A stretch of 64,000 bases of DNA from a virus (IMGVR_UViG_3300031578_000005:32001-96000); one strand, 5' to 3'; numbered from the stretch's first letter, positions 17,484 through 46,715 are shown. The notes: generated from the letters alone by a model not told the origin. Program-made: numbers and translations.

Positions 17484-17527
17484 TTTGCAGTTATTGTAAC
17501 ATTTACTATCTTTGCTACGTATTTATA
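17484..17527 (+). promoter_or_regulatory. composite promoter of tRNA cluster 1
   Basis: TTTG-N19-TATCTTTG nested with TGTAAC-N17-CGTA and GTATTTATA. Confidence 0.75.
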
Positions 17528-17745
17528 AAAAGGAGTATAAATTCCATCCATTGTTTTTACGTGAATGGAATGTAAGCGGCAAATGCTAATCCTGATTGAG
17601 AATATACTAAAGTAAGGAATAATCATATTGTCGGGTTCAGGGATTGAATCCTACATTAAGCAAAAACGGGATGAGGCGTTGCCATTAGGTGAGTCTATGA
17701 CCCCCGAAGCCCAACCCGTCAGTTTTGCTGTGGGTGGTAGTTCAC
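17527..17745 (+). mobile_element. IS200/IS605-derived MITE (omega-RNA-like right end)
   Basis: ends GAAGCCCAACCC...GGGTGGTAGTTCAC; left part resembles 45357-45440. Confidence 0.7.
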
Positions 17746-17797
17746 AAAATGCAAGCCTATTATTTAGGCAGTTAATTAAATTGAAGAATTAGAAATT

Positions 17798-17872
17798 ATG
17801 AAAAATTTTACACATACTCAGCCCCAACCGCAACAACATCCACAAGAAGTTGAATGGGGAAAATATGTTTAA
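17798..17872 (+). CDS. leader peptide 1 MKNFTHTQPQPQQHPQEVEWGKYV
   Basis: 10 of codons 6-16 are Pro/Gln/His; GAATGGGG pairs with terminator 5' arm. Confidence 0.85.
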   Translation: MKNFTHTQPQPQQHPQEVEWGKYV

Positions 17873-17901
17873 AAATTTTAAGAATATTTTAAAATGAACA
17901 T

Positions 17902-17931
17902 AGACCCCATTCGAAAGAGTGGGGTTTTTTT
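17902..17931 (+). terminator. attenuator terminator 1
   Basis: ACCCCATTC-GAAA-GAGTGGGGT followed by T-run. Confidence 0.85.
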
Positions 17932-17984
17932 GTAACAAAAAATTTGATATTACGTATAGTTGTTCTTTGAAATATAATTTAAAA

Positions 17985-18058
17985 CTGGGAGTGGGAAAAT
18001 TGGTTAATCCGCTTGCCTTGGACGCAAGAGACTGCTGAATCGTACTCAGCCTCCCAGA
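17985..18058 (+). tRNA. tRNA-Pro(TGG)
   Basis: cloverleaf; CTTGC-ctTGGac-GCAAG; atypical T loop. Confidence 0.8.
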
Positions 18059-18067
18059 CAATTTTAT

Positions 18068-18156
18068 CGAGTAGTAGCTCTGTAGCTGGTAGCAGTCCCG
18101 TCTTGGAAACGGGTGGAATATAAAATCCCTCGCAGGTTCGAACCCTGCCTATTCGA
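18068..18156 (+). tRNA. tRNA-Pro(TGG), long variable region
   Basis: CCCGT-ctTGGaa-ACGGG; GGTTCGAACCC. Confidence 0.8.
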
Positions 18157-18214
18157 CTGGTAGTCAAAGAGTTATATTGATTTCTACTTTGACTGTAAAA
18201 AAATCCATATATAT

Positions 18215-18289
18215 GGTGGTATTAGTGTAGTGGTTAGCACGATACTCTGTGAAAGTATTAGCACCAGTTCAAATCTGGTATATCACCCC
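18215..18289 (+). tRNA. tRNA-His(GTG)
   Basis: ATACT-ctGTGaa-AGTAT; GTTCAAATC. Confidence 0.85.
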
Positions 18290-18295
18290 AAATAT

Positions 18296-18369
18296 TACTC
18301 TCTGGTGTAATTGGTTAACATTTTGGAATTTGACTCCAAAGATTGTAGGTTCAAGTCCTACGAGAGTAA
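18296..18369 (+). tRNA. tRNA-Gln(TTG)
   Basis: TTGGA-atTTGac-TCCAA; GGTTCAAGTCC. Confidence 0.85.
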
Positions 18370-18375
18370 CAATAT

Positions 18376-18458
18376 TGTCCTCTGGCAGAATGGCTATTGC
18401 ATCGCCCTTTGAAGGCGACACCCGAAACGGTTTACAGGTTCGAATCCTGTGAGGACTA
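18376..18458 (+). tRNA. tRNA-Gln(TTG) with long variable arm
   Basis: TCGCC-ctTTGaa-GGCGA; CCG-AAA-CGG variable stem. Confidence 0.75.
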
Positions 18459-18466
18459 CACTATAT

Positions 18467-18537
18467 TACCAAATGGTGTAATGGTAACACCCAATCCTCT
18501 GAAGGTTGTGTTCTTGGTTCGAATCCAAGTTTGGTTA
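18467..18537 (+). tRNA. tRNA-Gln(CTG)
   Basis: CAATC-ctCTGaa-GGTTG; GGTTCGAATCC. Confidence 0.85.
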
Positions 18538-18628
18538 CTAAGATAGTTGAATCAATTATTATGAATGCATAAGAATTATTAATGGGCTTAGAACTTGGAA
18601 TTAAATATTAATTCATTATATTTGCAAA

Positions 18629-19488: not shown

Positions 19489-19530
19489 TTTGCAGATATT
19501 GTAACATTTACTAACTTTGTTGCGTATTTA
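19489..19530 (+). promoter_or_regulatory. composite promoter of tRNA cluster 2
   Basis: TTTG-N19-TAACTTTG + TGTAAC-N17-CGTA + GTATTTA. Confidence 0.78.
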
Positions 19531-19576: not shown

Positions 19577-19666
19577 ATGAAAAATTTACTCGACATATTG
19601 ATGGTAGTCTTAGCAGTTGACCTATTATGGGCAGATGCAGAGGATAAACTATGTTTAGTCGGGTAA
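19577..19666 (+). CDS. leader peptide 2 MKNLLDILMVVLAVDLLWADAEDKLCLVG
   Basis: 23 of 26 codons after MKN are L/V/D/A/E/W/G/M; GTCGGGT pairs with terminator 5' arm. Confidence 0.85.
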   Translation: MKNLLDILMVVLAVDLLWADAEDKLCLVG

Positions 19667-19693
19667 TGAAAAATTACACTCCTTTCTTAATTG

Positions 19694-19727
19694 AAAAACC
19701 CGACAACTAAAAATGGTCGGGTTTTTT
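19694..19727 (+). terminator. attenuator terminator 2
   Basis: AAAAACCCGAC...GTCGGGTTTTTT. Confidence 0.85.
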
Positions 19728-19807
19728 GTTTTTATAGAAAGGATGTTCTTTGACATGTTGGAAATTTAAAAATAATTGGAGTGGGTTTGTAATCCACTCC
19801 TAAATAA

Positions 19808-19879
19808 CGACTGCGTAGTATAATGGCTAGTATTTCTCACTGTCTATGAGAGGGCGGGGTTCGAATCCCACGTAGTCGG
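19808..19879 (+). tRNA. tRNA-Asp(GTC)
   Basis: TCTCA-ctGTCta-TGAGA; GGTTCGAATCC. Confidence 0.85.
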
Positions 19880-19882
19880 CAT

Positions 19883-19956
19883 GGTGCGTTTGGCAAGTTG
19901 GTTAAGCCGTAAGACCTTCAATTTTACATTCATGGGTTCGAGTCCCATACGCACTA
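19883..19956 (+). tRNA. tRNA-Glu(TTC)
   Basis: TAAGA-ccTTCaa-TTTTA; GGTTCGAGTCC. Confidence 0.8.
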
Positions 19957-19962
19957 CGATAT

Positions 19963-20034
19963 GTTCGGTTCGAATAATGGTCAGTTCACAAAATTTTCAA
20001 TTTTGTTATAGCGGTTCAAATCCGCTACCGAGTA
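19963..20034 (+). tRNA. tRNA-Glu(TTC)
   Basis: CAAAA-ttTTCaa-TTTTG; GGTTCAAATCC. Confidence 0.8.
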
Positions 20035-20173
20035 CATTTAAAAACATACGGTTTAGGACCGTTATGGTTTCGACCATAGAAGAGTGACGATGTTCGCTAC
20101 TACGTCACTCTTTAATTTAAAAATCTTGACAATACCGCTATTATTTAATACATTTGCAATAAATCTTGAAATC

Positions 20174-20665
20174 ATGGCATTGGATGTTAATAGTGAAAAG
20201 GGTAAAGAAAGCGTTCGTCAAGAAGCTGAAATGTTAAAAGGTGTTGAAAAATGCTGGAATTATAATGTCGTTGTGACAAATAAAAATAAAGAGGCAATTT
20301 GTGATGGTTTTTTAGTAAAAAAAAGAGAAGTTGTTGCAATATTTGAAAGTAAATGTAGGGACCTATCATATAATGAATTGGAAAATTATGGTTCATGGCT
20401 TATTACATATGATAAAATAAAAACCTGTAAATATTTATCTGAATTATTGAAAGTACCATTTATTGGTTTCTTGTATCTAATCAAAGACAATATCACACTT
20501 TTTTGGAAAATCACTGATTCAGATGGAAAGTACTTATTTGAATTTAATCATAATAAAACATTAACGCAAGAAACAATTAATGGTGGCAAAATATACAGAG
20601 ATAATGCATATTTGCCATTTTCAGAAGCTAAATTTGTTCACAAAGAAGAAATTATGTTTCCATAA
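20174..20665 (+). CDS. PD-(D/E)XK-like nuclease-fold protein
   Basis: CDGFL...IFESKCR; likely start MALDVNS after TACATTTG promoter. Confidence 0.55.
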   Translation: MALDVNSEKGKESVRQEAEMLKGVEKCWNYNVVVTNKNKEAICDGFLVKKREVVAIFESKCRDLSYNELENYGSWLITYDKIKTCKYLSELLKVPFIGFLYLIKDNITLFWKITDSDGKYLFEFNHNKTLTQETINGGKIYRDNAYLPFSEAKFVHKEEIMFP

Positions 20666-20715
20666 TGAATGATATTACAAACACAATTAATTAATTTGTT
20701 TATAATATAGTACAT

Positions 20716-20786
20716 GGGGAATTGGCGTAAAGGTAGCGTATTTGGCTTACATCCAATTGGCAATAGTTCGATTCTATTATTCCCTA
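20716..20786 (+). tRNA. tRNA-Val(TAC)
   Basis: TTGG-ctTACat-CCAA; GTTCGATTC. Confidence 0.7.
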
Positions 20787-20942
20787 CTTCGTCTGGAAAA
20801 TCCAGAAATAAATTAGCAGTTATCGGCTTATTCATCGATAAACATTCGTTATCGGTTATTAAGACGATAAAGCTATCTGGAAAATTCAGATAATTTCACA
20901 AAATCATTGTTTTATTTAAAATAAACTCAGTATATTTATAAC

Positions 20943-21089
20943 TTGTCAGTATAAGACATTAAAACCTCGTTAGGGACTAACGAGTACACGAGTGGAGTAA
21001 AAGTAAGACTTCTAGCTTTTCGGAGCAGTAAGCAAATTGCCGTGAAACTCGAAGCTCAATCCATCACGAAGTGTGGATGGGTAGTTCAC
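20943..21089 (+). mobile_element. omega-RNA-like IS200/IS605 right-end element (copy B)
   Basis: near-identical to 45960-46109; ends GGGTAGTTCAC. Confidence 0.7.
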
Positions 21090-21175
21090 ATAGGTATCGT
21101 CTAAAGGTAAGACGCTTCCCGTCCGAGGGAAGAGATGGGAACTGCAGATAAGGTTCAATTCCTCCTGCCTATGCA
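21088..21175 (+). tRNA. degenerate tRNA, probably Gly(TCC)
   Basis: CATAGG/CCTATG acceptor; irregular anticodon loop containing TCC. Confidence 0.45.
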
Positions 21176-21178
21176 AAT

Positions 21179-21262
21179 GCTCTTATGGTGCAACTGGAGT
21201 GAGACACAGCAGTCTTAGAAACTGTTTCTTAAATGGTGTGGGTTCGAGTCCCACTAAGAGCA
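21179..21262 (+). tRNA. tRNA-Leu(TAG)
   Basis: GCAGT-ctTAGaa-ACTGT; GGTTCGAGTCC. Confidence 0.85.
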
Positions 21263-21975
21263 CAATTTACTTCTAACTTATTATTGATTACATTAATAAC
21301 AATATTTAAATATTTTATTGAGGTTTGTTCTTTGAAATACTTTTGTTGGGAGACATCGATTATACATAATTCAATTCCTTGTTCTAAACAGGCTTGAAAC
21401 TTACGTTGGTCATTATTTTGGATTTGACCTAATTTATCTTCACCAAATATTGGTTCGTAATGGAAAATACCATTAAGTTCAAATGCTAATTTAAGTGAGG
21501 GAATGTAAATATCTAATTCTGAATTGATGGTTGTTTTATTATTGAATAATATTTCTAAATTTCGGTATTGTTTGGTTAATTCAGTTTCAAGATATTGCTC
21601 AAGTTTCGACCTACGATTACCATTTGTTTTGTGTTTATTATTATATGTGGCAGCACATGAACGTGAACAAAAGTGATTGGTAGATTTTTTTTTATCTGAT
21701 AATTGAATCGTAATATTGTTGCCACAATTAGTACATTGAATTATTTCTTTTTTACCTTGTGACGATTGATAACAATTTAATGAACAATATTTACCACTAA
21801 ATTTAGCACTTTTACATGGGATTTGTTTTATTTTACGTTTTGTTAAATAAAAAATATTTGCACAGCCATAACATTTGCATGGTAATTTATCTAATGATTT
21901 TGATGTTAAAAACTCTTGTTCTGTATATAATTTAATCATATAATGATGTTTATAATAAATACTTATAATATTCAT
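21229..21975 (-). CDS. Zn-finger + PD-(D/E)XK/Vsr-like free-standing endonuclease
   Basis: CxxC...YCSxxC, FCSRSC; ELDIYIP..AFELNGIFHY...DQRK. Confidence 0.75.
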   Translation of the reverse strand: MNIISIYYKHHYMIKLYTEQEFLTSKSLDKLPCKCYGCANIFYLTKRKIKQIPCKSAKFSGKYCSLNCYQSSQGKKEIIQCTNCGNNITIQLSDKKKSTNHFCSRSCAATYNNKHKTNGNRRSKLEQYLETELTKQYRNLEILFNNKTTINSELDIYIPSLKLAFELNGIFHYEPIFGEDKLGQIQNNDQRKFQACLEQGIELCIIDVSQQKYFKEQTSIKYLNIVINVINNKLEVNCALSGTRTHTI

Positions 21976-22088
21976 TTTCTGTACGTATCATCAGTACAAA
22001 ATTTATCGAAATAAAAAACTGCTTATTCTGGGGGATGATAGTAAGTTCCAGACACTAAGGTAGGGGTGATAGTCTACATAGGCGTAAT

Positions 22089-22162
22089 GGGGTCGTAGCT
22101 CAATTGGCGAGAGCACCGCACTTGCAATGCGGAGGTTAGGGAATCGTGCTCCCTCGACTCCA
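22089..22162 (+). tRNA. tRNA-Ala(TGC)
   Basis: GGGG start with G3:U70; CCGCA-ctTGCaa-TGCGG. Confidence 0.85.
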
Positions 22163-22216
22163 CAAATGACTGTAAATCAACAATTTACAGTCATTATTTA
22201 AAGTAATCATTTACAT

Positions 22217-22303
22217 GGCTCAGTGGTGGAAATGGCAAGACACGCAGGACTTAAAATCCTGTCCACCGAAAGGTGGGTGTGGGTTCGACTCCCATCTGAG
22301 CTA
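22217..22303 (+). tRNA. tRNA-Leu(TAA)
   Basis: CAGGA-ctTAAaa-TCCTG; long variable arm. Confidence 0.9.
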
Positions 22304-22392
22304 CAATTACCGGATATTGCCAGATAAAATTTTAGTTTATTGATTATCAAATATTTAATAAATTATATTTTACCAGATATTGCCGGATACAT

Positions 22393-22466
22393 GGCTCTAT
22401 AACCCAAATGGTAGAGGTGGTGTCTTCAAACGGCATTTGTTTTCAGTTCGAATCTGAATAGAGCTA
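22393..22466 (+). tRNA. tRNA-Leu(CAA), short variable loop
   Basis: GTGTC-ttCAAac-GGCAT; GTTCGAATC. Confidence 0.7.
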
Positions 22467-22494
22467 CAACAGTATTTATAATAAAACTAAGGTT

Positions 22495-22980
22495 ATGAAT
22501 TATAAATTATTTTCTTACTTAATGATGATACTGGTGTTTGTATCATATGTTGTATTCATCTGGTCAAGATATGGCATACAAAAATCAATATCTGCCAGTT
22601 ATTATGTATTGCCTGAAAAAATCAATGTGTTATTCACATTATTTTGTTGGGGATTTGCATTTCCTGCGATAATTGTTGCACAAACGCCATTAATGTTTTT
22701 GGCAGGTTCTGCAATTGTTTTTGTTGGTGCTGCCGCAAGATTTAAAGAAAAACTAACAAAATCTGTTCATATGATAAGTGCTACAATTGGTGTTATTTTA
22801 AGTCAGGCATCAATATTTTTTGATTATCACCTGTGGCATCTTAATGCAATATTTGTATTATCGTCATTAATTATATTAGGTGTGCTATATTTTAAACACA
22901 TCGATAAATATATATGGTGGATTGAAATTTTTGCATTTTCAACAATATGTATTGCATTAGGTATTAATTCAATATTTTAA
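22495..22980 (+). CDS. multi-pass membrane protein
   Basis: several hydrophobic helices, SISASYY motif; late motif at 22471. Confidence 0.75.
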   Translation: MNYKLFSYLMMILVFVSYVVFIWSRYGIQKSISASYYVLPEKINVLFTLFCWGFAFPAIIVAQTPLMFLAGSAIVFVGAAARFKEKLTKSVHMISATIGVILSQASIFFDYHLWHLNAIFVLSSLIILGVLYFKHIDKYIWWIEIFAFSTICIALGINSIF

Positions 22981-22985
22981 AATAC

Positions 22986-23056
22986 ACGTCTTTGTTGTAA
23001 TGGTAGCATAAATCTCTCCAAAAGATTTAGTACTTGTTCGAATCGAGTAAGACGTG
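22986..23056 (+). tRNA. tRNA-Trp(CCA)
   Basis: AATCT-ctCCAaa-AGATT. Confidence 0.8.
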
Positions 23057-23118
23057 CAAAATAAAGTTTATTGAAACAATTACTTTTGCTGTTCGAGATT
23101 GTTTTTATGTTAAAATAA

Positions 23119-23475
23119 ATGATTATGAATAGCAAAACAGATAATTTTTCAGATATTGAAATAATTAAAATACTTTCAGAGTGTAAATCATTTAGAGAGG
23201 TTTTAATTAAAATCGGTTATAGTAGTAATGGAAGCGGTGGTTATAGTCTACTCAAACAACAATTAAAAAAACGTGGCATTCAAATACCTAAATATCATTA
23301 TTATGGTGATGGAAAAAAACGTAGCTTATATACATTAGATGAAATTTTAGTTGAGAATTCAACATATACTGCAAGAGGTCGATTAAAAAAACGTTTGGTT
23401 AAAGAAGGTATGTTAGAATATAAATGTGTTTCTGATAACACAATACGTAAATGGCTTAAATTATATGAAAAATAA
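23119..23475 (+). pseudogene. HNH-type endonuclease with apparent internal deletion
   Basis: LDEILVENSTY...LKKRLVKEG..EYKC joins directly to VSDNTIRKW; no HNH core. Confidence 0.55.
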
Positions 23476-23489
23476 ATGTGCTAATACAT

Positions 23490-23562
23490 GCGTCTATCGT
23501 TCAACGGTAAGACAACTGCTTCCAAACCAGTTAATGAGGGTTCGATTCGTTCCCGGTGTGCT
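23490..23562 (+). tRNA. degenerate tRNA (Gly TCC or Trp CCA)
   Basis: D arm and GGTTCGATTC present; anticodon register ambiguous; poor 3' pairing. Confidence 0.4.
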
Positions 23563-23689
23563 AAATCGAATTTAAATTTTAGTGGAATAATTTCAGCTTT
23601 GATTTTCATTTGTAACAAAACCAATTTTTTTTCGTATATATTACCAATAATATTTGTTAATTAACACAAAATGATTTAAATTTGCTATT

Positions 23690-24406
23690 ATGTATATAAT
23701 CTCAAAAAAGAAAGATTTTTATGATGGTGTTGTCTCGACAATGGGTATTGATAAGTCTATTGTTTTTAATCGAGATGATGTTGAAATTGGAGAAAATGAA
23801 TATCCAAAATTATTTAGCCACTCCAAAGGTTATTGGAATTCATTAATGAATGATACCATTAATAATTTACATCACCACAATATAAAAAAAGAGCATAAAG
23901 GCGATTATCAAGCATATAACTATTTTGTTATTGGATTTTGTGGAAAACTTTATTTGGGTATGAAGTTATATACAAAAAGTCAGAACATCTTTGATGGTTT
24001 AACAACAAAAATAATTTATGATATTGACTTAATTACTGAAATTATTGAAAACACCGGCTATCGAAGCAATTTAATTGATGAAATTAATTATGTTCGTAAT
24101 TATAATGCATTAGACATTTTTAGAAAATTTAATACACCTGTATTTGTATATGATAATGACTATAACCGAATCTCGATCAATGATAGAAATGAGCATAAGT
24201 TCATTATTAACGCCAATATATACGAATATGAATTTTATAAAATCTTTGATAGTTTTCATGCATTCCAAGAAATTCAAATGTTTATTAGCGGTGTATTGGG
24301 TAGTGGTGAAAAGGAAATAATCAAAATTACAGATAAAGATAAAATCGCTCAACATGGCTTTGACTATAAATATAGTTTTAGAAAAGATAAAGAAAATAAA
24401 AAATAA
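23690..24406 (+). CDS. conserved phage hypothetical protein
   Basis: 238 aa; KKDFYD N-terminus and HGFD..SFRK C-terminus. Confidence 0.75.
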   Translation: MYIISKKKDFYDGVVSTMGIDKSIVFNRDDVEIGENEYPKLFSHSKGYWNSLMNDTINNLHHHNIKKEHKGDYQAYNYFVIGFCGKLYLGMKLYTKSQNIFDGLTTKIIYDIDLITEIIENTGYRSNLIDEINYVRNYNALDIFRKFNTPVFVYDNDYNRISINDRNEHKFIINANIYEYEFYKIFDSFHAFQEIQMFISGVLGSGEKEIIKITDKDKIAQHGFDYKYSFRKDKENKK

Positions 24407-24413
24407 GTTCTTT

Positions 24414-24776
24414 GGGGGTGACCGGATTTGACAGCATGTTAGACTGGTAATGTAAGCAGGTAGTAGTTGAATCAGGCTACTTTAAAAAGGTTCAAAGTTA
24501 TAAACGCAAACAATTCCGAGGACATTATGTCCATTCCGACTTCACACTTAATTGTGGGAAGAAGTGCATTTGCAGAGAAAACTGAACTCGCATTTGCTGC
24601 ATAGGAAATAACTAATACAGTTAAGAACTCCTGAGTTGAAAGGATAAATTTAATACAGTTTCATGTTTGAACTGGTAGAATCAATCAATACTTTGTCGGT
24701 TTAGAGAAATCGAATAAACCTGTAGAAAACGTATTAATCACATGTGTGGACGTGGGTTCGAATCCCACTACCTCCA
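24414..24776 (+). ncRNA. ssrA: tmRNA
   Basis: GGGGGTGACCGGATTTGAC 5' end, tRNA-like 3' end GGTTCGAATCCCACTACCTCCA; tag ORF 24506-24604 ending AFAA*. Confidence 0.92.
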
Positions 24777-24796
24777 CTTAAGTAATTATAAATAAG

Positions 24797-25231
24797 ATGA
24801 TTATGAGTACAGCAAGAAGTAGATTTATTGAAGCGATTGATGTTTGGATTAAGTCTGACGACGGAGAAGCCTACCTTAAAGACGAACGAATTCGACATGA
24901 AATTCAAATTGGAAGATATAAACGTTTTGATGACTGGTTGAAATGCAATGACTTTGATCTGCTAATATATCGACTAATTTTAAAGCATGACATAAGCTAT
25001 CGTGAAAAATATTATCATAATGGATTCGAACCCGGACCAAATAATTTATTACAATTCATTTTTGACTATATCGACAATAAATTCGAACCAATTGCCGTAG
25101 CTGAACTTGATTGCGAATTTTCAAATAATATCTGGTTATTTAAAGGATATTATTTTCAATGTATTTATGGTCAAGGAGCAATATTTAAAATATATAATAA
25201 AGCAGATATGCGAGAAATAATATCAATATAG
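24797..25231 (+). CDS. hypothetical protein
   Basis: 144 aa ORF. Confidence 0.7.
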   Translation: MIMSTARSRFIEAIDVWIKSDDGEAYLKDERIRHEIQIGRYKRFDDWLKCNDFDLLIYRLILKHDISYREKYYHNGFEPGPNNLLQFIFDYIDNKFEPIAVAELDCEFSNNIWLFKGYYFQCIYGQGAIFKIYNKADMREIISI

Positions 25232-25383
25232 ATGAAAAAAATCAAGCAACAAAAAAACGATGACTGTAATTGTGGTAAGTCAGTTAAAATAACAGAAAGA
25301 AAAAAATTAATATATAAGAACAATAAGAAATGAAAGAAAATTTTAAAGTCTTGTAATGCAACTCAAATGTTGCTACAAGAATA

Positions 25384-25713
25384 ATGAAAGTAAAAAAAAT
25401 TGTAGATTCAACAACAAATCGTTATGTATTCAATCGTGCGTATAAAGAATATTTAGAACGCAAAGGTAAAATTCGTTGCTCTTATTGCCAATTTCATAAA
25501 AATGAAAATGATAATAGAAAATGGTATGGTGGAATAAAACATAATGAATTTTATGATGATATGTTGACATGTTATGGTGGTGTTAAAGAAACTCATACTA
25601 GATATCCTAATTGGAAATTAATTTCTAAAAATAAGAAACAGTGGATGAATAAAGGAATTAAAATCACTGAAAAATATGATTTAAAACGTATTTATATTGA
25701 AATAAAATTTTGA
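25384..25713 (+). CDS. hypothetical protein with CxxC-H motif
   Basis: 109 aa ORF. Confidence 0.65.
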   Translation: MKVKKIVDSTTNRYVFNRAYKEYLERKGKIRCSYCQFHKNENDNRKWYGGIKHNEFYDDMLTCYGGVKETHTRYPNWKLISKNKKQWMNKGIKITEKYDLKRIYIEIKF

Positions 25714-25723
25714 GGTAATCACA

Positions 25724-25798
25724 TGGCGACATCGTTCAATGATAGGACAGCTCTCTCATAAGGAGTTGATACGAGTTCAATTCTCGTTATCCCAACCA
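25724..25798 (+). tRNA. tRNA with CAT anticodon (Met or Ile2)
   Basis: CTC(T)-ctCATaa-GGAG; ends ACCA; imperfect acceptor stem. Confidence 0.65.
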
Positions 25799-30503: not shown

Positions 30504-30545
30504 TGTAACATTTATTAGTTTATTACGTATTTATGATTAACTTTG
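30504..30545 (+). promoter_or_regulatory. composite promoter of tRNA cluster 3
   Basis: TGTAAC-N16-CGTATTTAT followed by TAACTTTG. Confidence 0.7.
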
Positions 30546-30565
30546 TAGAATTAAAATTTGAAATA

Positions 30566-30667
30566 ATGAAAAAAGGTAACACATATTATAAAAAGTATTA
30601 TTATAAACATTATGTTTGTAAGACTGGCAATACTGTGTTGTTATCTGAAAAGGAAACTGATAATTAA
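30566..30667 (+). CDS. leader peptide 3 MKKGNTYYKKYYYKHYVCKTGNTVLLSEKETDN
   Basis: 9 of codons 7-16 are Lys/Tyr; TAAGACTGG pairs with CCGGTCTTA. Confidence 0.85.
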   Translation: MKKGNTYYKKYYYKHYVCKTGNTVLLSEKETDN

Positions 30668-30684
30668 AGATAAACGATACTAAC

Positions 30685-30723
30685 AAAAAACCCGGTCTTA
30701 ATTTAATAAGACCGGGTTTTTTT
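30685..30723 (+). terminator. attenuator terminator 3
   Basis: AAAAAACCCGGTCTTA...TAAGACCGGGTTTTTTT. Confidence 0.88.
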
Positions 30724-30743
30724 ATGCTTATTTTCATTGTAAT

Positions 30744-30824
30744 TGGGTGGTAGGTAAGTGGTTAAAACGGATTGACTGTAAATCAATTGCTTCGGCTTCG
30801 GGGGTTCGAATCCCTCCCGCCCAA
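30744..30824 (+). tRNA. tRNA-Tyr(GTA)
   Basis: ATTGA-ctGTAaa-TCAAT; variable arm; GGTTCGAATCC. Confidence 0.88.
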
Positions 30825-30831
30825 CAATAAT

Positions 30832-30915
30832 GCATCCATGCCAGAGAGGTTATGGACTGGACTTTTAATCCAGACTCCGAACGGAGTAACGTAGATTCGA
30901 GTTCTACTGGATGCA
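30832..30915 (+). tRNA. tRNA-Lys(TTT) with long variable arm
   Basis: CTGGA-ctTTTaa-TCCAG; ACTCCG/CGGAGT extra stem. Confidence 0.7.
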
Positions 30916-30968
30916 CAGTGGGGACTGTTTATAATTTTCATAGTACATGAAAGCGTAGAAAATTAAAT

Positions 30969-31042
30969 GACTCCATAGCTCAATTGGTAGATGTAACTGG
31001 CCTTTAACCAGTGGGTTCTGGGTTCGAGTCCCAGTGGGGTCA
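30969..31042 (+). tRNA. tRNA-Lys(TTT)
   Basis: ACTGG-ccTTTaa-CCAGT; GGTTCGAGTCC. Confidence 0.85.
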
Positions 31043-31126
31043 CTAACTAAACTTTAATGAACTGAAGTTTTGTCAACCACCAATCATGATTAGGTTCATA
31101 GGCGGGGAAGATTTATAAGTTCAAAC

Positions 31127-39945: not shown

Positions 39946-39987
39946 TTTGCAGATATTGTAACATTTACTAACTTTGTTACGTATTTA
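39946..39987 (+). promoter_or_regulatory. composite promoter of tRNA cluster 4
   Basis: near-identical to 19489-19530. Confidence 0.78.
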
Positions 39988-40019
39988 GATGAAACGAATT
40001 AAGAAAATTGAATAATTTT

Positions 40020-40145
40020 ATGAAAACATTAACGATAAATATAAACATTTCTACATCGACATCAAGTCGCATTGGAGACTCTATATTCTGTTCAAATTTT
40101 AATGGCAGAATTGGAAACATTTTATCGGGTTTTAGTTTTTATTAA
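40020..40145 (+). CDS. leader peptide 4 MKTLTININISTSTSSRIGDSIFCSNFNGRIGNILSGFSFY
   Basis: 35 of 39 codons after MK are T/I/N/S/R/G/F/C; TCGGGTTTT pairs with AAAACCCGA. Confidence 0.85.
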   Translation: MKTLTININISTSTSSRIGDSIFCSNFNGRIGNILSGFSFY

Positions 40146-40168
40146 ATATAAAAGCACTAAATAAATTC

Positions 40169-40200
40169 AAAACCCGAATTCAAAAGATTCGGGTTTTTTT
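40169..40200 (+). terminator. attenuator terminator 4
   Basis: AAAACCCGAAT...ATTCGGGTTTTTTT. Confidence 0.88.
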
Positions 40201-40341
40201 GTGATTATAATTTAAATGTGAATTGAAAAATTCACAAAGTTCATTGACATACTGGTTTTTGGTAATCAAATAAAACTACCTGCTCGTGGTGATTACCGCA
40301 CAATTAATTAATATTAATTGACTAAATGTTTTATGTTATAT

Positions 40342-40430
40342 ATCGGAATGCTTGAGTGGTTTAAAAGCGTGGTCTGCAAAACCAATGGTAATCAATGAAT
40401 TACACGTGAGTTCGAATCTCATTTCCGATT
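40342..40430 (+). tRNA. tRNA-Cys(GCA), long variable arm
   Basis: TGGT-ctGCAaa-ACCA; U discriminator. Confidence 0.8.
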
Positions 40431-40475
40431 CAAAGTTAATTTAAGTTTAAACTATTTATGTAAAATGTTATTAAC

Positions 40476-41084
40476 ATGATACCAATATTATATACAAAAA
40501 GAATTAAATCATTAATTAAAGAGGAATTAAATAGGCTTATTGTTGAAGTTTTTGAAGGTGAATTGAATACAAATTATCAAGAACTATCACAAAAATATGA
40601 TACATATAATGTAATTACATATAGGTTTGAAACCAATTCAAAAACCTCATATGATTTGGAATTTATTTTTAATTATGTTTTAGGTAATGAAAAAATGTCT
40701 GATGGTTCAGAACTATATACACACATATTAAACATGAAACGTACTGATTACATGGAAAGTATTGATATTGGATTTACATTAAGTGATAGAATCAATAATT
40801 TTGGTTTAGATTCTATCGAAGCTAATGAATTTACAAAGAATTCAAATAAGAACGAACCAATCGAATTAATGGGTCGTATTAGCTATTTAATTAAAATGTT
40901 TATAAATTCTAATGAGAATATCAATATTTTTATTGTCGGTAAAAATACTGATAGGAGTAAATTAAAAATTTACAGAACAATATTTAAAAATATCTTTAGC
41001 AATAATTTCATCCTTTTAGAAGGTGAGCATCATGGCTATAATGATGGTGCTTTATATTTCATAAAGAAAACAATATTGACTTAA
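40476..41084 (+). CDS. hypothetical protein with LIKEE leader
   Basis: 202 aa; ACTATTTATG upstream. Confidence 0.7.
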   Translation: MIPILYTKRIKSLIKEELNRLIVEVFEGELNTNYQELSQKYDTYNVITYRFETNSKTSYDLEFIFNYVLGNEKMSDGSELYTHILNMKRTDYMESIDIGFTLSDRINNFGLDSIEANEFTKNSNKNEPIELMGRISYLIKMFINSNENINIFIVGKNTDRSKLKIYRTIFKNIFSNNFILLEGEHHGYNDGALYFIKKTILT

Positions 41085-41256
41085 AATATTAAAGTCTGTG
41101 TTTTGCATATATTGCTATAATATGTAGATTATTGCAAAACATAAACAGTTATTAATATGCTAGTGTTGCTTTAATGGTTTCATATTTAAATTTTATTATA
41201 AAAACTCGAAAATTTAATTTCGAATCATTATTTGTGCACAAAAATAAAAACTATTT

Positions 41257-41329
41257 GGACATATAGCTACAATGGTAGAGCGTCATCCTGTTAAGTTGAA
41301 AGGTCTTGGTTCGAATCCAAGTATGTCCT
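41257..41329 (+). tRNA. tRNA-Asn(GTT)
   Basis: ctGTTaa loop; GGTTCGAATCC. Confidence 0.82.
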
Positions 41330-41339
41330 CATTTTAATT

Positions 41340-41413
41340 ATCCGTGTATATCAATTGGTTAGATGAACACCCTGATAAGGTGTGGGTTGGTGGTTCAAGT
41401 CCACCCTCGGATA
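41340..41413 (+). tRNA. tRNA-Ile(GAT)
   Basis: ACACC-ctGATaa-GGTGT. Confidence 0.85.
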
Positions 41414-41428
41414 CAAAATAAAAATAAT

Positions 41429-41502
41429 GCAGGTAACGCATAAATGATGGTGCACCAGTTTACCAAACTGGAATAGAGTCGGTTTGATTCCGATTACCTG
41501 CT
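41429..41502 (+). tRNA. tRNA-Gly with ACC anticodon
   Basis: GCAGGTA/TACCTGC-T acceptor; CCAGT-ttACCaa-ACTGG. Confidence 0.7.
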
Positions 41503-41565
41503 CATTTACAATTAGTTGAAAATACATTTAGAATGTATTAAAATGAGTTTTGGCTCATTAACATT

Positions 41566-41670
41566 TTATCGTTGACGGAGTGGATTAACGTTGATACGAT
41601 ACTAAAGTCTGAGAGTGATAGTACGTTATCAATACTCAAGGACTCATGGGTTCGAATCCTGTACGATAAT
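41566..41670 (+). ncRNA. tRNA-like RNA with greatly extended anticodon arm
   Basis: acceptor TTATCGT/ACGATAA, D arm and GGTTCGAATCC T arm; long central stem. Confidence 0.55.
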
Positions 41671-41676
41671 TATTAC

Positions 41677-41769
41677 GGTAGAGTACTCAAATTGGTAAAG
41701 AGGTTTGTCCTGAAAACAAATAGGTCGTGTGATGAGCATGATGCGTGGGTTCGAACCCCACTTCTACCT
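41677..41769 (+). tRNA. tRNA-Ser(TGA)
   Basis: TTTGT-ccTGAaa-ACAAA; long variable arm. Confidence 0.85.
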
Positions 41770-42034
41770 CAAACAATTTAACCTGCAAGTTATTTTGTTT
41801 CTCATACAATACTATAAACAAGTTGTTATTGCAGTAATGAATTGATGTAAAGTATGTGTAAATTTTGGGTTGCATAAGAGGCTTTATTTTAATGTTCTGT
41901 GGATTGTTGTATTATACCCGTGGTTGGCAACTCGGAAAATAAGAAAACATTTGAGAGACATTATTATACTTGTAAAATGGTATTGAATAAGTGAGTAGGA
42001 GGCTCACCCCAAAATTTTTAATTTATTATTAAAT

Positions 42035-42109
42035 AGAGATGTAGCTGAGTAGGTTTAGCACCAGTTTGAAGGTCTGGGATTAACGTGGGTTCGATTCCCA
42101 CCGTCTCTA
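42035..42109 (+). tRNA. tRNA-Phe(GAA)
   Basis: CCAG(T)-ttGAAgg-(T)CTGG; GGTTCGATTCC. Confidence 0.7.
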
Positions 42110-42224
42110 CACAAGGTCTTATGAATGTTATTAATTAAACATATTATATTGTTACAATTATATATTACATTATTTTTATGAATTATTTAGTATTTATATT
42201 AAATTCGTCTATAAGACATGAATT

Positions 42225-43454
42225 ATGCAATTAGTTGAACAACATATTATCAATCGTAATCATATATTCTATAATGAATGTGATTCGTTATGTTTTAAAA
42301 CTAAAAATCTATATAATTCATGTTTATATGTCATACGTCAGGCATATATCAATGATAAGGTTAATTTATTATATGATTTACACTCATTAATGAAAGATAC
42401 TGAACAGTATAAAGAACTACCCGCTAAAGTGTCTTCCACAGTGTTGTTAATGATTCAAAAGAATTTCAAATCTTATTTCAAATCAAATGCAGAATTTTAT
42501 AAAAATTCATCTAAATTTAAAGATAGACCTAAATTACCCAATTATTTGGATAAAATAAATGGTAGATATTTTGCTTCATATACAAATCAAGCCATATCAA
42601 AAAAAGTGTTTAATAAATCACATAAAATATTATTATCTAAAACCAACATCGAGTTAACAACCAAAATAGTTGATTTTAATATCATCGATTGTGTTAGAAT
42701 TGTACCGAGATTAGACCACTATGTTATTGAAATAGTATATACCATTCCAGATAAACCTAAATTACCTAACAATAATAAATATTTATCTATTGATTTTGGT
42801 GTTAATAATTTAGCAACAATAACGTCAAATGTTAAAGATGTTAAACCTATTATTATTAATGGTAGACCATTAAAATCAATTAATCAATATTATAACAAAA
42901 AACTGGCACACTATAAATCTAAATTAGAATTGATTAATAAAAAGAAACATAGCAATAGGACAAGGAAATTGACTAACAAAAGAAAAAATAAAGTTGATTA
43001 TTATTTACATAAAGCAAGTAAGACAATTGTTAGTTTAACAAAAAACAATAATATTAACACCATAATAATAGGTAAGAACGATAATTGGAAACAAGGTATC
43101 AACATGACAAAGGCTAATAATCAAAACTTTGTTAATATACCACATAGTAGATTTATAGATATGATTATTTATAAATGCGAAATAGAAGGAATCAATGTTA
43201 TACTACAAGAAGAAAGTTACACAAGTAAAGCATCTTTTTTAAACTTAGATAATATACCTATTTATGGTGATAATCAAAAAAAGCATTTCAGTGGTTATCG
43301 TTATAACAGGGGTTTATATAAAATAAGAGGAAGAAAAGAATTTATTAATGCAGATGTGAATGGTAGTTATAACATATTAAGAAAAGCAATCCCAAAAGCA
43401 TTTGCTGATGGGATAGAGGGTATAGGAGTATATCCAATTAAACTTATGATTTAA
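42225..43454 (+). CDS. tnpB: solo TnpB (IS200/IS605, IS1341-like)
   Basis: SIDFGVNN, LHKAS, QEESYTSK, INADVNG; no Zn-finger Cys; no tnpA adjacent. Confidence 0.88.
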   Translation: MQLVEQHIINRNHIFYNECDSLCFKTKNLYNSCLYVIRQAYINDKVNLLYDLHSLMKDTEQYKELPAKVSSTVLLMIQKNFKSYFKSNAEFYKNSSKFKDRPKLPNYLDKINGRYFASYTNQAISKKVFNKSHKILLSKTNIELTTKIVDFNIIDCVRIVPRLDHYVIEIVYTIPDKPKLPNNNKYLSIDFGVNNLATITSNVKDVKPIIINGRPLKSINQYYNKKLAHYKSKLELINKKKHSNRTRKLTNKRKNKVDYYLHKASKTIVSLTKNNNINTIIIGKNDNWKQGINMTKANNQNFVNIPHSRFIDMIIYKCEIEGINVILQEESYTSKASFLNLDNIPIYGDNQKKHFSGYRYNRGLYKIRGRKEFINADVNGSYNILRKAIPKAFADGIEGIGVYPIKLMI

Positions 43455-43530
43455 TGAAAAAATAATATTTTATATTATTTTAAACTCTGAGGGAGTCCTT
43501 TAAAGATATAAATAACCTGTCCCTCTCCAT

Positions 43531-43603
43531 GCAGCATTGGTGTTTAACGATAGCATATGACTCTTCCAAAGTCGAGGTTTCGGTTTGAATCCGAAATGCT
43601 GCT
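43531..43603 (+). tRNA. tRNA-Gly(TCC)
   Basis: GACT-ctTCCaa-AGTC; GCAGCAT/ATGCTGC-T. Confidence 0.8.
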
Positions 43604-43616
43604 CTCTTATTGATAT

Positions 43617-43690
43617 TGTGGTGTAGCATGATTGGTTTATGCATCTGTCTTATACACAGGAGATTAAGGGTTCAAGTCCCTTCACCACAA
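43617..43690 (+). tRNA. tRNA-Ile(TAT)
   Basis: CTGT-ctTATac-ACAG; GGTTCAAGTCC. Confidence 0.75.
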
Positions 43691-43791
43691 CAAAAAGGTT
43701 GGAAATACGAAAATCAAAGCAGTAACTTTGAGAAGTAAATATTATACCTTCTATGAAAAATGAATTTTACTGATGAAATTTAGTAGTAGTT

Positions 43792-43863
43792 GTTTTATTA
43801 GCATAGCGGATAGTGCGTCTTGCGTTGAGCGAGAAGAGCTTGGTTCGAATCCAAGATAAGATC
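43792..43863 (+). tRNA. degenerate tRNA, anticodon uncertain (GTT or TTG)
   Basis: D and T arms present; irregular anticodon loop. Confidence 0.45.
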
Positions 43864-43928
43864 AAAATTCCTCAATGGAAAGTAGATTTGTTTGTTACGA
43901 TATTATAACTATCTTTACAAAAAAAATG

Positions 43929-44826
43929 ATTATGAAAAGAATTATGTTTTTAACATTTATTTTATTATCAACAATAGCATTTTCGGCAACATATTCTTCA
44001 ATCACCTCTGGTGATTGGAATATTGTTGGAACATGGAATAATAGCATACCAGTTGATGCAAATAATAACATTGTAACAATTAGCGCAGGACATACTGTAA
44101 CTGCAACTAATTTAATTTTTAATAACAGATTTACAATTAATATTGAATCTAGTGCTACATTAATAATTTATGCAAATCCTGTTGATGGAGATGCAATAAC
44201 AGTTAAAAATAATTTAACATTAAATATTGCTGATGGTGGATTAATAATTATTAGCGGTAATTTCAAAGTTAACTGTTGATGGAACATTAACAATTGATGG
44301 AGATTTATCTGCGGGAAATGGTTCGGTATTATTAGGAACTGGAAACGTTACTGTTACAGGAACTGTAACCGGGCCATCAGGATTTGTAACTGATTCACAA
44401 TTGCCTGTTGAATTATTATATTTTAACGCATATTATCAAGATGATGCTGTCGTAATTAATTGGGCAACAGCAAGTGAAACTAATAACGATTATTTTGCTA
44501 TTGAATATTCAGCTAATGCTCAAAATTGGTATTTTCTAACAAAAATAAATGGTGCTGGTAATTCTAAAATCAAAATTGATTATACCTATAAGTATAATGC
44601 CAATAATGATAATTATTACAGGCTTACACAGGTTGATTATAACGGCAAATCAGAAATCTTTACATCTGATATTGTGTATGTTAGCACGCATTATCTAAAC
44701 AAAAACATTAACTATGATATCTATGATATTAATGGTAGATATTTAGGAAATAAAGCAATTAAAAATTTACAGCATGGTATATTTTTAATTAAAAACGACA
44801 ATGAATTTAAGAAAATAATTCATTAA
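43929..44826 (+). pseudogene. Bacteroidota-type secreted protein (signal peptide, LPVEL module, T9SS CTD-like tail), frameshifted near 44265
   Basis: SGDWN..GTW; LPVELLYF..WATASETNNDYF..GAGNS; IYDINGR..GIFLIK. Confidence 0.7.
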
Positions 44827-44833
44827 TTGTAAT

Positions 44834-44918
44834 GCCGATGTCGCATAGTTGGTCAATTGCGCCACACTTGTAATGTGGAATCGTAAGAATGTCGTGGGTT
44901 CGAATCCTACCATCGGCT
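44834..44918 (+). tRNA. tRNA-Thr(TGT)
   Basis: CCACA-ctTGTaa-TGTGG; enlarged variable region. Confidence 0.85.
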
Positions 44919-44947
44919 CTCACTTTAACATAATAAATAACTGAAAT

Positions 44948-45349
44948 ATGAGTTTACAATCAAAAATTAGGACTGACATGGTAGCTGCCATGAAATCCAG
45001 AGATACTGAAACATTGTCATTATTAAGAGTTGCTGCTGGAGAATTTGGAAGGAAAATGAATAACGGCATTGAGCTTCCTGATAACCAAGTAATTGCAATT
45101 CTTAGAAAGATGTGTGAAAATGCTGTTGAAATGGGAAATTTTGGTGAAGTTGAGATTCTCAATAGATACATCCCCAAAATGCTTGATAAAGACCAAACAA
45201 AGGATATTATCGTAGATATTGTCAATAAGAATGGTTTTTCTGGAATTAAGGATTTGGGTAAGATCATGAGTGAATTAAAAAAGATATCTATGGCATCACA
45301 AGTTAATGGCAAATTAGCGAGTGATATTGCCAAACAAATTTTGCAATAG
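44948..45349 (+). CDS. GatB/YqeY domain protein
   Basis: IRTDMVAAMKSRD...LLR...E..ILNRYIPK..GKIMSELKK...NGK. Confidence 0.8.
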   Translation: MSLQSKIRTDMVAAMKSRDTETLSLLRVAAGEFGRKMNNGIELPDNQVIAILRKMCENAVEMGNFGEVEILNRYIPKMLDKDQTKDIIVDIVNKNGFSGIKDLGKIMSELKKISMASQVNGKLASDIAKQILQ

Positions 45350-45356
45350 TATTTAT

Positions 45357-45659
45357 AAACAGGAGAGTAAAACCAATTCATCGCTTTAGCGTGGATGGGA
45401 TGTAAGCGACAAACGTAAGTTTAACCCTGATTTACAGTATTTTACAGAAAAATTAAAAAACTTTAAAGTGAAAGCAACTTTTTGTATATTTATACGTATT
45501 TAATAATATATGCTAAAGTCATTTAAATATTAAGAACTTTGCGTTAAGAAATAATGTATCTGGGACGGATACTAAAACTCGGAACGAACTGCCTACATTA
45601 GTAGGAGTGTTGACTTCCGAAGTCCAACCCATCAGTTTTGCTGTGGGTGGGTAGTTCAC
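45357..45659 (+). mobile_element. internally deleted IS200/IS605 element (MITE)
   Basis: tnpB-like start MLKSFKY joined to a tnpB-like end; right end GGGTAGTTCAC. Confidence 0.72.
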
Positions 45660-45695
45660 AAGTAAATAACATTATTAATTATACAAACATGAAAA

Positions 45696-45929
45696 GTGAT
45701 GAGGGTCCTAAGCAGAGAAAAAACAGCAACATTGTTCTTATTTTTAGGAACATTTTTCAACCCTTTGGGTTACGATGCCCTTTTAAAATGGCTAATGGAT
45801 ACGACAGGGAGTTATTGGTTTTCAATTTCTATTTTTTACCTGTTATCTCTATCATGCTTTATCTCATACTTTGCCTTGGCTAAGATAAATCCATTTAAAT
45901 TAATAAAAATTAGAAAAAATAAGAAATAA
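45696..45929 (+). CDS. small membrane protein
   Basis: two hydrophobic helices, FFNPLGYDAL. Confidence 0.6.
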   Translation: MMRVLSREKTATLFLFLGTFFNPLGYDALLKWLMDTTGSYWFSISIFYLLSLSCFISYFALAKINPFKLIKIRKNKK

Positions 45930-45959
45930 TTAGTAATAGTTATTTCTTATTTTTGTAAT

Positions 45960-46109: not shown

Positions 46110-46131
46110 AAAAATTGTTATATGAGAAAAC

Positions 46132-46405: not shown

Positions 46406-46436
46406 CAATAAATTTTAACAATTAAAACTTAAAAAG

Positions 46437-46712: not shown

Positions 46713-46715
46713 CAT

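Follow-up and report, generated by a model that had tools for sequence, protein, structure and literature searches.

In Proteobacteria, amino-acid biosynthesis operons such as trp, his, leu and pheA are controlled by leader-peptide attenuators, and those of ilvGMEDA, ilvBN and thr are multivalent. Attenuation through the pheM leader peptide controls pheST. The T-box binds uncharged transfer RNA (tRNA) directly via a specifier codon, and no translation is needed. Large phages, T4 and the jumbo phages among them, carry clusters of co-oriented tRNA genes, sometimes together with a transfer-messenger RNA (tmRNA) gene. The purpose of phage tRNA genes has long been debated: compensation of codon usage, replacement of decaying host tRNAs and escape from tRNA-cleaving defences have been considered. 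Here we describe an element of a virus genome (IMGVR_UViG_3300031578_000005:32001-96000) which precedes a block of phage tRNA genes and which, judged from its sequence, is probably a ribosome-mediated leader-peptide transcription attenuator; we put the probability of this reading at roughly 0.8. The window, that is, the whole stretch of 64,000 nucleotides (nt) analyzed, is part of a 128.5-kb virus record (G000) with an estimated completeness of 39%. We call the element unit 2, because it is accompanied by three sister units in the same window.

The general principle of leader-peptide attenuation is set out in PMC1183508. The phage units resemble the attenuators of amino-acid operons in having a promoter, a short open reading frame (ORF) rich in regulatory codons, the hairpins 1:2, 2:3 and 3:4 and an intrinsic terminator, and in having the stop codon placed so that a terminating ribosome would mask region 2. 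As in ilv and thr, one leader would sense several amino acids. In contrast, the phage units would regulate tRNAs and not biosynthetic enzymes; therefore, the product would act directly on the sensed quantity. Moreover, the phage setting is different, four units split the 20 amino acids with up to seven to nine per leader, and the sensing codons are distributed over a single long hairpin and do not form a short run.

According to PMC2965389, as of 2010 leader-peptide systems were known only in Proteobacteria, in Actinobacteria and in the Firmicutes hisS cases which that paper describes. Like pheST and these hisS cases, the phage units would place a gene of the translation apparatus, serving the sensed amino acid, under leader-peptide control. 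In turn, pheST and hisS differ in that they encode aminoacyl-tRNA synthetases, concern one amino acid each and reside in cellular genomes. Like a T-box, a phage unit would tie the state of a particular tRNA to terminator read-through via an antiterminator; unlike a T-box, it has an ORF and a frame-specific codon match, and no T-box model matches it. The co-oriented tRNA genes and tmRNA in a large phage genome are shared with the clusters of T4 and jumbo phages, whereas predicted leader-peptide control is not a feature of those clusters as described in the literature searched. Searches of the part of the literature open to searching gave no account of leader-peptide attenuation upstream of tRNA genes or within the tRNA clusters of phages. 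Leader-peptide attenuation is itself a known class of mechanism; the tRNA target, the phage setting and the partition of the amino-acid alphabet appear to be new.

Results

The leader of unit 2 is rich in codons read by the downstream tRNAs

Unit 2 comprises a promoter-class site, a short ORF with its own start codon downstream of it, and an intrinsic terminator which sits between this leader ORF and the tRNA genes; coordinates are given in Table 1. Following the initial MKN, 22 of the 26 leader codons specify D, E, V, L, A, W or M (binomial P = 1.5e-7; proteome background, 0.339). Of the 631 short ORFs found in the 128.5-kb record, this one ranks first by in-set fraction. The enrichment of cognate codons expected of an attenuator was found in unit 2, in its relatives and in the frame test described below. 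An earlier note on this DNA had counted 23 matching codons of 26. The count of 22 stands, but the 23rd match needs Gly to be supplied by an aberrant tRNA-like gene. The note had also stated that each of the Leu codons TTA, TTG and CTA has a cognate tRNA, and the anticodons taa, caa and tag are indeed present. The Leu codon CTC has no cognate, save via four-way wobble of tag. For the Met (CAT) match, a gene exists; however, the call is weak and lies 6 kb downstream, past a promoter at 23612.

The alternative pairings on which the attenuator reading depends can be located in the same ORF. The motif GTCGGGT (19658-19664) consists of the last two sense codons and the first base of the stop codon. 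Both the sequence and the folding agree with the earlier claim that this motif can pair alternatively with ACCCGAC of the terminator or with the upstream ACTCGAC, which is located inside codons 4-6 (19588-19594). About 30 nt separate GTCGGGT from the terminator, and a further 81 nt separate the terminator from tRNA-Asp, which starts at 19808. The terminator has a 9-bp GC-rich stem (-11.9 kcal/mol). A simple terminator scan missed it because its loop is 11 nt long.

Each leader matches its own tRNA block

A 25-nt box upstream of the leaders occurs three times in the window (17484, 19489 and 39946; 0 expected), and a fourth, related copy is found at 30505, before the Tyr-Lys block. Behind each of the four boxes come a short ORF, an intrinsic terminator and a tRNA block. 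We compared the four leaders with the four blocks in a 4 x 4 table. The share of codons for the leader's own block was 10/23 in unit 1 (PHQ; P = 2e-6), 22/28 in unit 2 (DEVLAWM; P = 2e-6), 13/32 in unit 4 (YK; P = 3e-4) and 35/40 in unit 3 (CNISFGQTR; P = 1e-7). In all 12 off-diagonal cells, P was at least 0.68. As to the 631 short ORFs of the record, those at the observed fraction were the leader only for units 1 and 2, none for unit 4 and three for unit 3. Together, the four predicted attenuators cover all 20 amino acids.

Predicted folding of the leader RNA depends on the position of a ribosome

The minimum-energy fold of unit 2 (-42.6 kcal/mol) comprises a long imperfect hairpin, which spans codon 4 through the stop codon, and the terminator after it. 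Its z score is -3.8, and none of 200 shuffled sequences was equally stable. The four units fold alike, with a leader hairpin and a terminator (z from -3.8 to -4.95). The effect of a ribosome was computed by constrained folding, in which the ribosome footprint was held single-stranded and the transcript was either cut before region 4 or full-length. In the cut unit-2 transcript without a ribosome, region 3 was paired upstream at 2.6 of 9 positions. When the ribosome was placed at most of codons 2-23, this value was about 7.1 of 9 (range 4.6-7.2), and with the ribosome at codons 24-30 it was 3.1-4.9 of 9. The permissive ribosome positions coincide with the enriched codons 4-23. By computation, the 2:3 antiterminator and the terminator exclude each other; in unit 2, region 2 is sequestered by region 1 when no translation takes place; and the stop codon is placed for masking of region 2, as the lowered 2:3 pairing at codons 24-30 indicates. 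In unit 1, a ribosome at codons 7-13 (Thr-Gln-Pro-Gln-Pro-Gln-Gln) shifts the full-length equilibrium to the antiterminator.

The codon match is conserved and confined to the reading frame

Relatives were collected by several searches. The protein adjoining the tmRNA, used as a query, gave three viral contigs, and a pattern derived from the leader gave seven stretches from four distinct genomes. In a profile search of metagenome contigs, 139 of 595 pattern-matched stretches encoded a relative of the neighboring protein, and 80 were kept. The relatives show 43-53% identity in this protein, and the family is widespread in metagenomes of soil, sediment, freshwater and sludge. A unit was defined as a terminator with a short ORF before it and a tRNA gene at most 400 nt after it. 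This detector flagged 78 units, and removal of duplicates and of nine matches that did not resemble leaders left 52 non-redundant units (23 of type 1, 17 of type 2, 3 of type 3 and 9 of type 4). One of the nine dropped matches (L104) is a true type-2 leader that the regular expression missed; it was found by eye and stands outside the 52. The order of the blocks, Pro-His-Gln, Asp-Glu-Val-Leu-Ala-Trp...Met, Tyr-Lys and then the rest, recurs in the relatives.

In all 34 comparisons within a genome, the leader matched its own block best. The same was true of 33/33 comparisons when the ORF was chosen freely among all candidates. In the ORF frame, the in-set fraction averaged 0.49, as against 0.16 for frame +1 and 0.15 for frame +2, and the ORF frame ranked top in 52/52 units. 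Because the match is confined to the ORF frame, base composition or RNA structure alone cannot explain it.

Leader codons also change together with the tRNA genes. Arg codons are present in 14 type-1 leaders, 13 of which have a downstream tRNA-Arg, and nine leaders have neither (2 x 2 counts 13, 1, 0 and 9; Fisher P = 1.2e-5). Genomes whose Pro-His-Gln block has gained tRNA-Arg(acg) or tRNA-Arg(tcg) carry the Arg codon in the core of the leader. This codon is always CGC, CGT or CGA and never AGR; tRNA-Arg(acg) is the species present. In type 2, all 14 leaders with tRNA-Val carry two to four interior Val codons, and the three without tRNA-Val carry none (Fisher P = 0.0015). Type-2 leaders keep their start codon and their length (26-34 sense codons), and insertions and deletions in the sensing stretch have lengths divisible by three. 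In 14 of 17 type-2 leaders, the stop codon comes immediately after region 2 (GTC GGG; GTC GGA in L120).

The pairing is conserved likewise. In the 17 type-2 relatives, the 1:2 stem is paired in 92.8% of cells, the 3:4 terminator stem in 98.0% and the 2:3 helix in 98.3% of 119 cells. One type-2 lineage has altered regions 2, 3 and 4 together. For pairing between a leader tail and the 5′ arm of its own terminator, the mean energy is -13.45 kcal/mol; shuffled tails give -5.49, and tails combined with terminators from other unit types give -7.96. This pairing reached P <= 0.05 in 46 of the 51 units tested. Unit 4 of the window did not pass, as its complementary stretch is situated nearer the start of the ORF. 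The pairing sequences vary by type (GAATGGGG/CCCCATTC, GTCGGGT/ACCCGAC and TCGGGTTTT/AAAACCCGA), and in type 4 they vary between genomes, being TAAGACTGG/CCGGTCTTA in the window and GAATCGGG/CCCGATTC in relatives. At the level of sequence, unit 2 has every feature that defines a leader-peptide attenuator: the promoter, the cognate ORF, the 1:2, 2:3 and 3:4 hairpins and the stop codon on region 2. The earlier proposal that unit 2 is an attenuator is supported within the reach of sequence analysis; the three sister units and the conservation and co-variation in the relatives strengthen it considerably, and it extends to a system of four units.

A leader could instead sense general translation capacity (ribosome availability, host shut-off or antibiotics), in which case the four units would open alike whenever ribosomes slow down. 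In the hairpin design, region 2 would be freed by a stall at almost any of codons 2-23, and leaders 2 and 3 carry codons for seven to nine amino acids each, so that their specificity would be broad. However, the composition of each leader fits its own block only, as both the 34 comparisons and the off-diagonal cells indicate. Furthermore, a general sensor has no need for runs of His/Gln/Pro or Tyr/Lys, or for CGN Arg codons which accompany tRNA-Arg. We consider a general sensor improbable and retain the reading of codon-matched attenuators.

Promoters

The promoter class of this phage has GTAACA, a spacer of 17-18 nt and usually TATAAT, with CG in front. Of the strict class sites in the 128.5-kb record, 41 lie on the + strand and a single one on the - strand; most are situated 20-60 nt 5′ of an ORF start. 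The -10 variant TATTTA occurs in four of the 41 strict + sites, and these are exactly the four leader promoters. Between 19727 and 23612, we found no further class site, even with a relaxed pattern. The earlier note had mentioned intervening promoters, and one phage-class site, at 23612, lies 5′ of the 238-amino-acid (aa) ORF and the tmRNA. Because this site precedes both, the tmRNA has a promoter of its own. Therefore, of the claim that the tmRNA belongs to unit 2, the co-oriented downstream position is correct, whereas membership in the attenuated unit is not supported; tmRNA expression probably does not depend on attenuator 2.

A generic sigma-70 scan gave 56 sites as against 56.0 expected and is thus uninformative. 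A Bacteroidota-type promoter consensus, taken as a possible clue to the host, was discarded, because its 9 matches (5.9 expected) are no enrichment. In viral contigs, the 16-mer of the promoter box matched 55 loci, all of them chance matches and none with a leader.

Elements around the terminator

Two untranslated elements are conserved near the terminator of type-2 units: CTCCTTTCTTAA before it and GTTCTTTGACATGTTGGAAATT after it (Table 1). The first resembles the pyrimidine-rich 3′ end of 16S rRNA. Among the leader GAGGAT, the 5′ untranslated region (UTR) and the sequence after the terminator, no conserved pairing partner for CTCCTTTCTTAA was found on inspection by eye. A small hairpin, GTAAT..ATTAC, which includes the leader stop codon, precedes CTCCTTTCTTAA.

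Between the terminator and the first tRNA, the motif GTTCTTTGACATG(TTGGAAATT) recurs (19745-19766, 17963 and 40240 in the window). It is present in 14/17 type-2, 2/3 type-3 and 4/23 type-1 units. Because the tRNA is too near, the motif is not a promoter; it may be a processing signal. Directly 5′ of tRNA-Asp there is a 7-bp hairpin, GGAGTGG..CCACTCC (19778-19800), which was not seen in the relatives inspected.

The location of CTCCTTTCTTAA and GTTCTTTGACATG next to the terminator would suit an RNA that binds tRNA (as a T-box or another riboswitch) or a protein directly, with the ORF being incidental. We searched 17400-26000 against all 4227 Rfam families (E <= 1) and found no match to a leader family (such as the Trp, His, Leu and Thr leaders) or to the T-box and no riboswitch family; only tRNA, tmRNA and two weak plastid matches were obtained. 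Such binding, moreover, would leave the kept start codon, ORF length and stop codon on region 2, the indels in threes and the match in the ORF frame only without a reason, and we judge it very unlikely. The recurrent motif and the hairpin at 19778-19800 may also bring to mind a leader whose translation governs processing or stability of the tRNA precursor, not termination. This is extremely unlikely in our estimation: a canonical GC-rich stem with a T run follows the ORF in 52/52 units, and the 5′ arm of the terminator is the partner of the leader tail, which is the geometry of termination control.

A second small ORF, MKNYTPFLIEKPDN (19666-19710), starts in a TAATG overlap with the stop codon of leader 2 and crosses region 3. 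As a conserved feature it was rejected: start and frame are not kept in G004.

Further features of the locus

Table 1. Positions of the features of unit 2, its sister units and the promoter-class sites in the window
Feature	Position	Strand	Remark
Promoter P1 of unit 2: GTAACA, 18 nt, TATTTA	19501..19530	+	promoter-class site, activity predicted
Leader ORF 2, MKNLLDILMVVLAVDLLWADAEDKLCLVG	19577..19666	+	29 codons and TAA
Sensing stretch of leader 2, codons 4-23			19/20 codons in D/E/V/L/A/W/M (peptide count)
Region 1, TTACTCGAC	19586..19594	+	codons 4-6, 5′ base of leader hairpin
Region 2, GTCGGGT and remainder of stop codon	19658..19666	+	partner of region 1 or region 3
Conserved element CTCCTTTCTTAA	19679..19690	+	between leader stop codon and terminator; 14/17 aligned type-2 units and L104
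Intrinsic terminator	19696..19727	+	region 3 AAACCCGAC (19696-19704), 11-nt loop, region 4 GTCGGGTTT (19716-19724), T run
Conserved element GTTCTTTGACATGTTGGAAATT	19745..19766	+	just 5′ of first tRNA; 14/17 type-2 units
tRNA-Asp(gtc), tRNA-Glu(ttc), tRNA-Glu(ttc)	19808..20035	+	ARAGORN, Rfam
tRNA-Val(tac), aberrant tRNA-like gene, Leu(tag), Ala(tgc), Leu(taa), Leu(caa), Trp(cca)	20716..23057	+	
Aberrant tRNA-like gene	21090..21173	+	Rfam 30.6 bits, 6-nt anticodon loop; 'Gly|Arg (cc)' by relaxed ARAGORN
Separate promoter (23612), 238-aa ORF (23690-24406), tmRNA (24414-24777)	23612..24777	+	
Weak tRNA(cat)	25725..25794	+	Rfam 42 bits; tRNA-Met by ARAGORN only at relaxed threshold
Unit 1: P1, leader MKNFTHTQPQPQQHPQEVEWGKYV (17798-17872), terminator (17903-17931), second promoter (17932)	17496..18538	+	tRNA block: Pro, Pro, His, Gln, Gln, Gln
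Unit 4: P1, leader MKKGNTYYKKYYYKHYVCKTGNTVLLSEKETDN (30566-30667), terminator (30688-30723)	30505..31043	+	tRNA Tyr, Lys, Lys
Unit 3: P1, leader MKTLTININISTSTSSRIGDSIFCSNFNGRIGNILSGFSFY (40020-40145), terminator (40170-40200)	39958..48693	+	tRNA Cys, Asn, Ile, Ser, Phe, Gly, Ile, Gln, Thr, Arg x3, Ser
Promoter-class sites in window (examples)	17932, 23612, 27022, 30336, 50849		

The ARAGORN calls from tRNA-Asp to tRNA-Trp and the tmRNA together span 19808-24777. Protein ORFs are interspersed among the tRNAs from Val to Trp, one of them on the - strand (21229-21975). The conserved 238-aa ORF has no Pfam match. The phage tmRNA lies directly 3′ of it, as also in relatives, and encodes a long tag ending in ...ELAFAA. 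Three tRNA-like genes were recognized by Rfam and not by default ARAGORN (21090-21173, 41429-41502 and 46846-46921). In the last of these, the anticodon loop carries ACG and the D-arm region is odd; L117 has a similar gene behind its Arg-bearing leader. At the end of the fourth tRNA block of G004 (L075, a complete genome of 349 kb) there is a tRNA with the amber-reading anticodon CTA, which ARAGORN labels Pyl. A leader-like small ORF (MKNYLNILEIFRQKMPSIKPKIWINL and variants) with a terminator was seen at L078:1559, L089:3325 and L093:2971; the copy in L093 is directly 3′ of the 238-aa gene, in the position of the tmRNA of the window.

Over about 75 nt, the promoter and 5′ UTR of unit 2 (19480-19560) are almost the same as those of unit 3 (39937-40015). 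In G004, the two are again near-identical to each other, yet unlike those of the window. This upstream identity suggests concerted evolution or a binding factor common to both. P1 and leader 1 are separated by a stretch of about 255 nt (17536-17790) that is richer in G+C and is absent from the relatives G001 and G004. It contains a T-arm-like hairpin (fold z = -1.84) and gave no Rfam or phage match.

The window has a G+C content of 29.6%. ARAGORN finds 31 tRNA genes and the tmRNA in it, all on the + strand, and Rfam gives 32 tRNA matches and the tmRNA. The record is a fragment of a phage of roughly 350 kb; two complete relatives have 340 and 349 kb. Pfam matches include a T4-type terminase large subunit, a ribonucleotide reductase, a helicase and a TnpB/Cas12f-like protein, the last encoded inside the phage genome at 14786-15922 (Cas12f1-like TNB domain, 3e-15). 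When 17400-20200 was compared with deposited phages by blastn, only three short matches to tRNAs or gene fragments were obtained, and no deposited phage resembles this region. Among the sequencing runs listed for 17450-21000, two soil DNA runs contain it, one of which may be its source, and none is an RNA run.

Discussion

From the sequence and the folding, we infer how unit 2 would work, including translation, stalling, kinetic competition and the extent of read-through. Transcription would start at P1, at about 19537. Ribosomes would load on the A-rich leader, which has no Shine-Dalgarno sequence, and translate the 29-codon ORF while the polymerase advances. When Leu-, Val-, Asp-, Ala-, Glu- and Trp-tRNA are ample, the ribosome would reach the stop codon and cover region 2; the 3:4 stem would form and transcription would stop at 19727. 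Termination would also be the outcome without translation, because region 2 would be locked to region 1 in the leader hairpin. If any such charged tRNA were scarce, the ribosome would stall in codons 4-23, the hairpin would melt and region 2 would pair with nascent region 3, so that the terminator would be blocked. The polymerase would then read into tRNA-Asp, Glu and Glu, and would probably continue through Val, Leu, Ala, Leu, Leu and Trp. Since the new tRNAs would relieve the stall, the unit would exert negative feedback on tRNA supply.

A number of observations weigh against this reading. As regards the leader itself, the missing Shine-Dalgarno sequence has been mentioned, and leader 2 contains the codons CTC, ATA, AAA and TGT, for which its block offers no cognate tRNA. 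In leader 3, a Gln codon is missing despite the tRNA-Gln in its block. As regards the transcript, the 3.3 kb from tRNA-Asp to tRNA-Trp include protein ORFs, one of which is on the opposite strand. In full-length unit 2 at equilibrium, the terminator prevails at almost every stall position (6.1-8.9 of 9 positions); therefore, control would need to be kinetic. For units 1, 3 and 4, equilibrium folding fails to sequester region 2: it permits 2:3 pairing without a ribosome, and there is no locked state. Covariation in type 2 is thin, as only two pairs changed on both sides, in a single lineage, and none of these is in the 1:2 stem.

The comparison of relatives has its own counterexamples. L117 has an Arg codon and only an uncalled Arg(acg)-like gene; L095 keeps Asp/Glu codons, and no Asp or Glu tRNA was found in it; L124 has Ala codons without tRNA-Ala, and L100 a Trp codon without tRNA-Trp. 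The gain of Arg and the loss of Val may be one or two evolutionary events, mostly in the same rearranged genome group, and because the changes share this group of related genomes, the Fisher P values overstate independence. In addition, the regular expressions used for sorting the types are based on composition; free choice of the ORF removes the bias in ORF choice, not that in unit choice. Finally, differences among leaders fall at the three codon positions in the numbers 648/771/1061 (counted without L093, L108 and L139, which have frame-shifted or extended tails), a third-position bias that is only mild, and most of them are non-synonymous. This pattern fits selection on composition and RNA pairing more than on peptide sequence.

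A further point against the attenuator reading concerns promoters. In four of the 52 units (unit 1 of the window, at 17932, and unit 2 of G001, G002 and G004), a promoter box follows the terminator. Therefore, the attenuator is not the sole route in these four units and would only add to a basal supply. These second promoters, together with the equilibrium preference for the terminator and a fairly conserved unit-2 peptide, could be taken to mean that the leaders are ordinary small genes, or short RNAs, whose terminators act constitutively, that transcription of the tRNAs begins elsewhere and that the codon match has no regulatory meaning. However, the other 48 units lack a promoter-like box in the spacer that separates the terminator from the first tRNA, and this spacer often measures no more than 3-40 nt. 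Ordinary small genes also explain neither the frame-specific match in 52/52 units, nor the tracking of Arg and Val, nor the pairing of tail and arm, which is kept despite sequence change. Such an account strikes us as distinctly improbable.

If the attenuator reading is true, these would be the first tRNA genes under leader-peptide attenuation, in the literature searched, and the units would be the first attenuator set that divides the whole amino-acid alphabet. An attenuator whose ORF is written in the codons of the downstream tRNAs would show that the phage produces tRNA on demand. It would also provide a direct experimental handle, namely which shortage opens which unit. We propose tentatively, at somewhat less than even odds, that the four units form a codon-resolved sensor array, in which limiting charged tRNAs switch on only the matching tRNA block. 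The speed of host ribosomes on the four leader ORFs, whose codons jointly represent all 20 amino acids, would tell the phage which charged tRNAs are limiting. The shortages could arise from host tRNA decay after shut-off or from defence nucleases that target tRNA. The units would be compact natural sensors of charged tRNA for defined groups of amino acids and could serve as reporters. If the sensor array is true, phage tRNA genes would be a demand-driven repair kit, not a constitutive supplement to codon usage.

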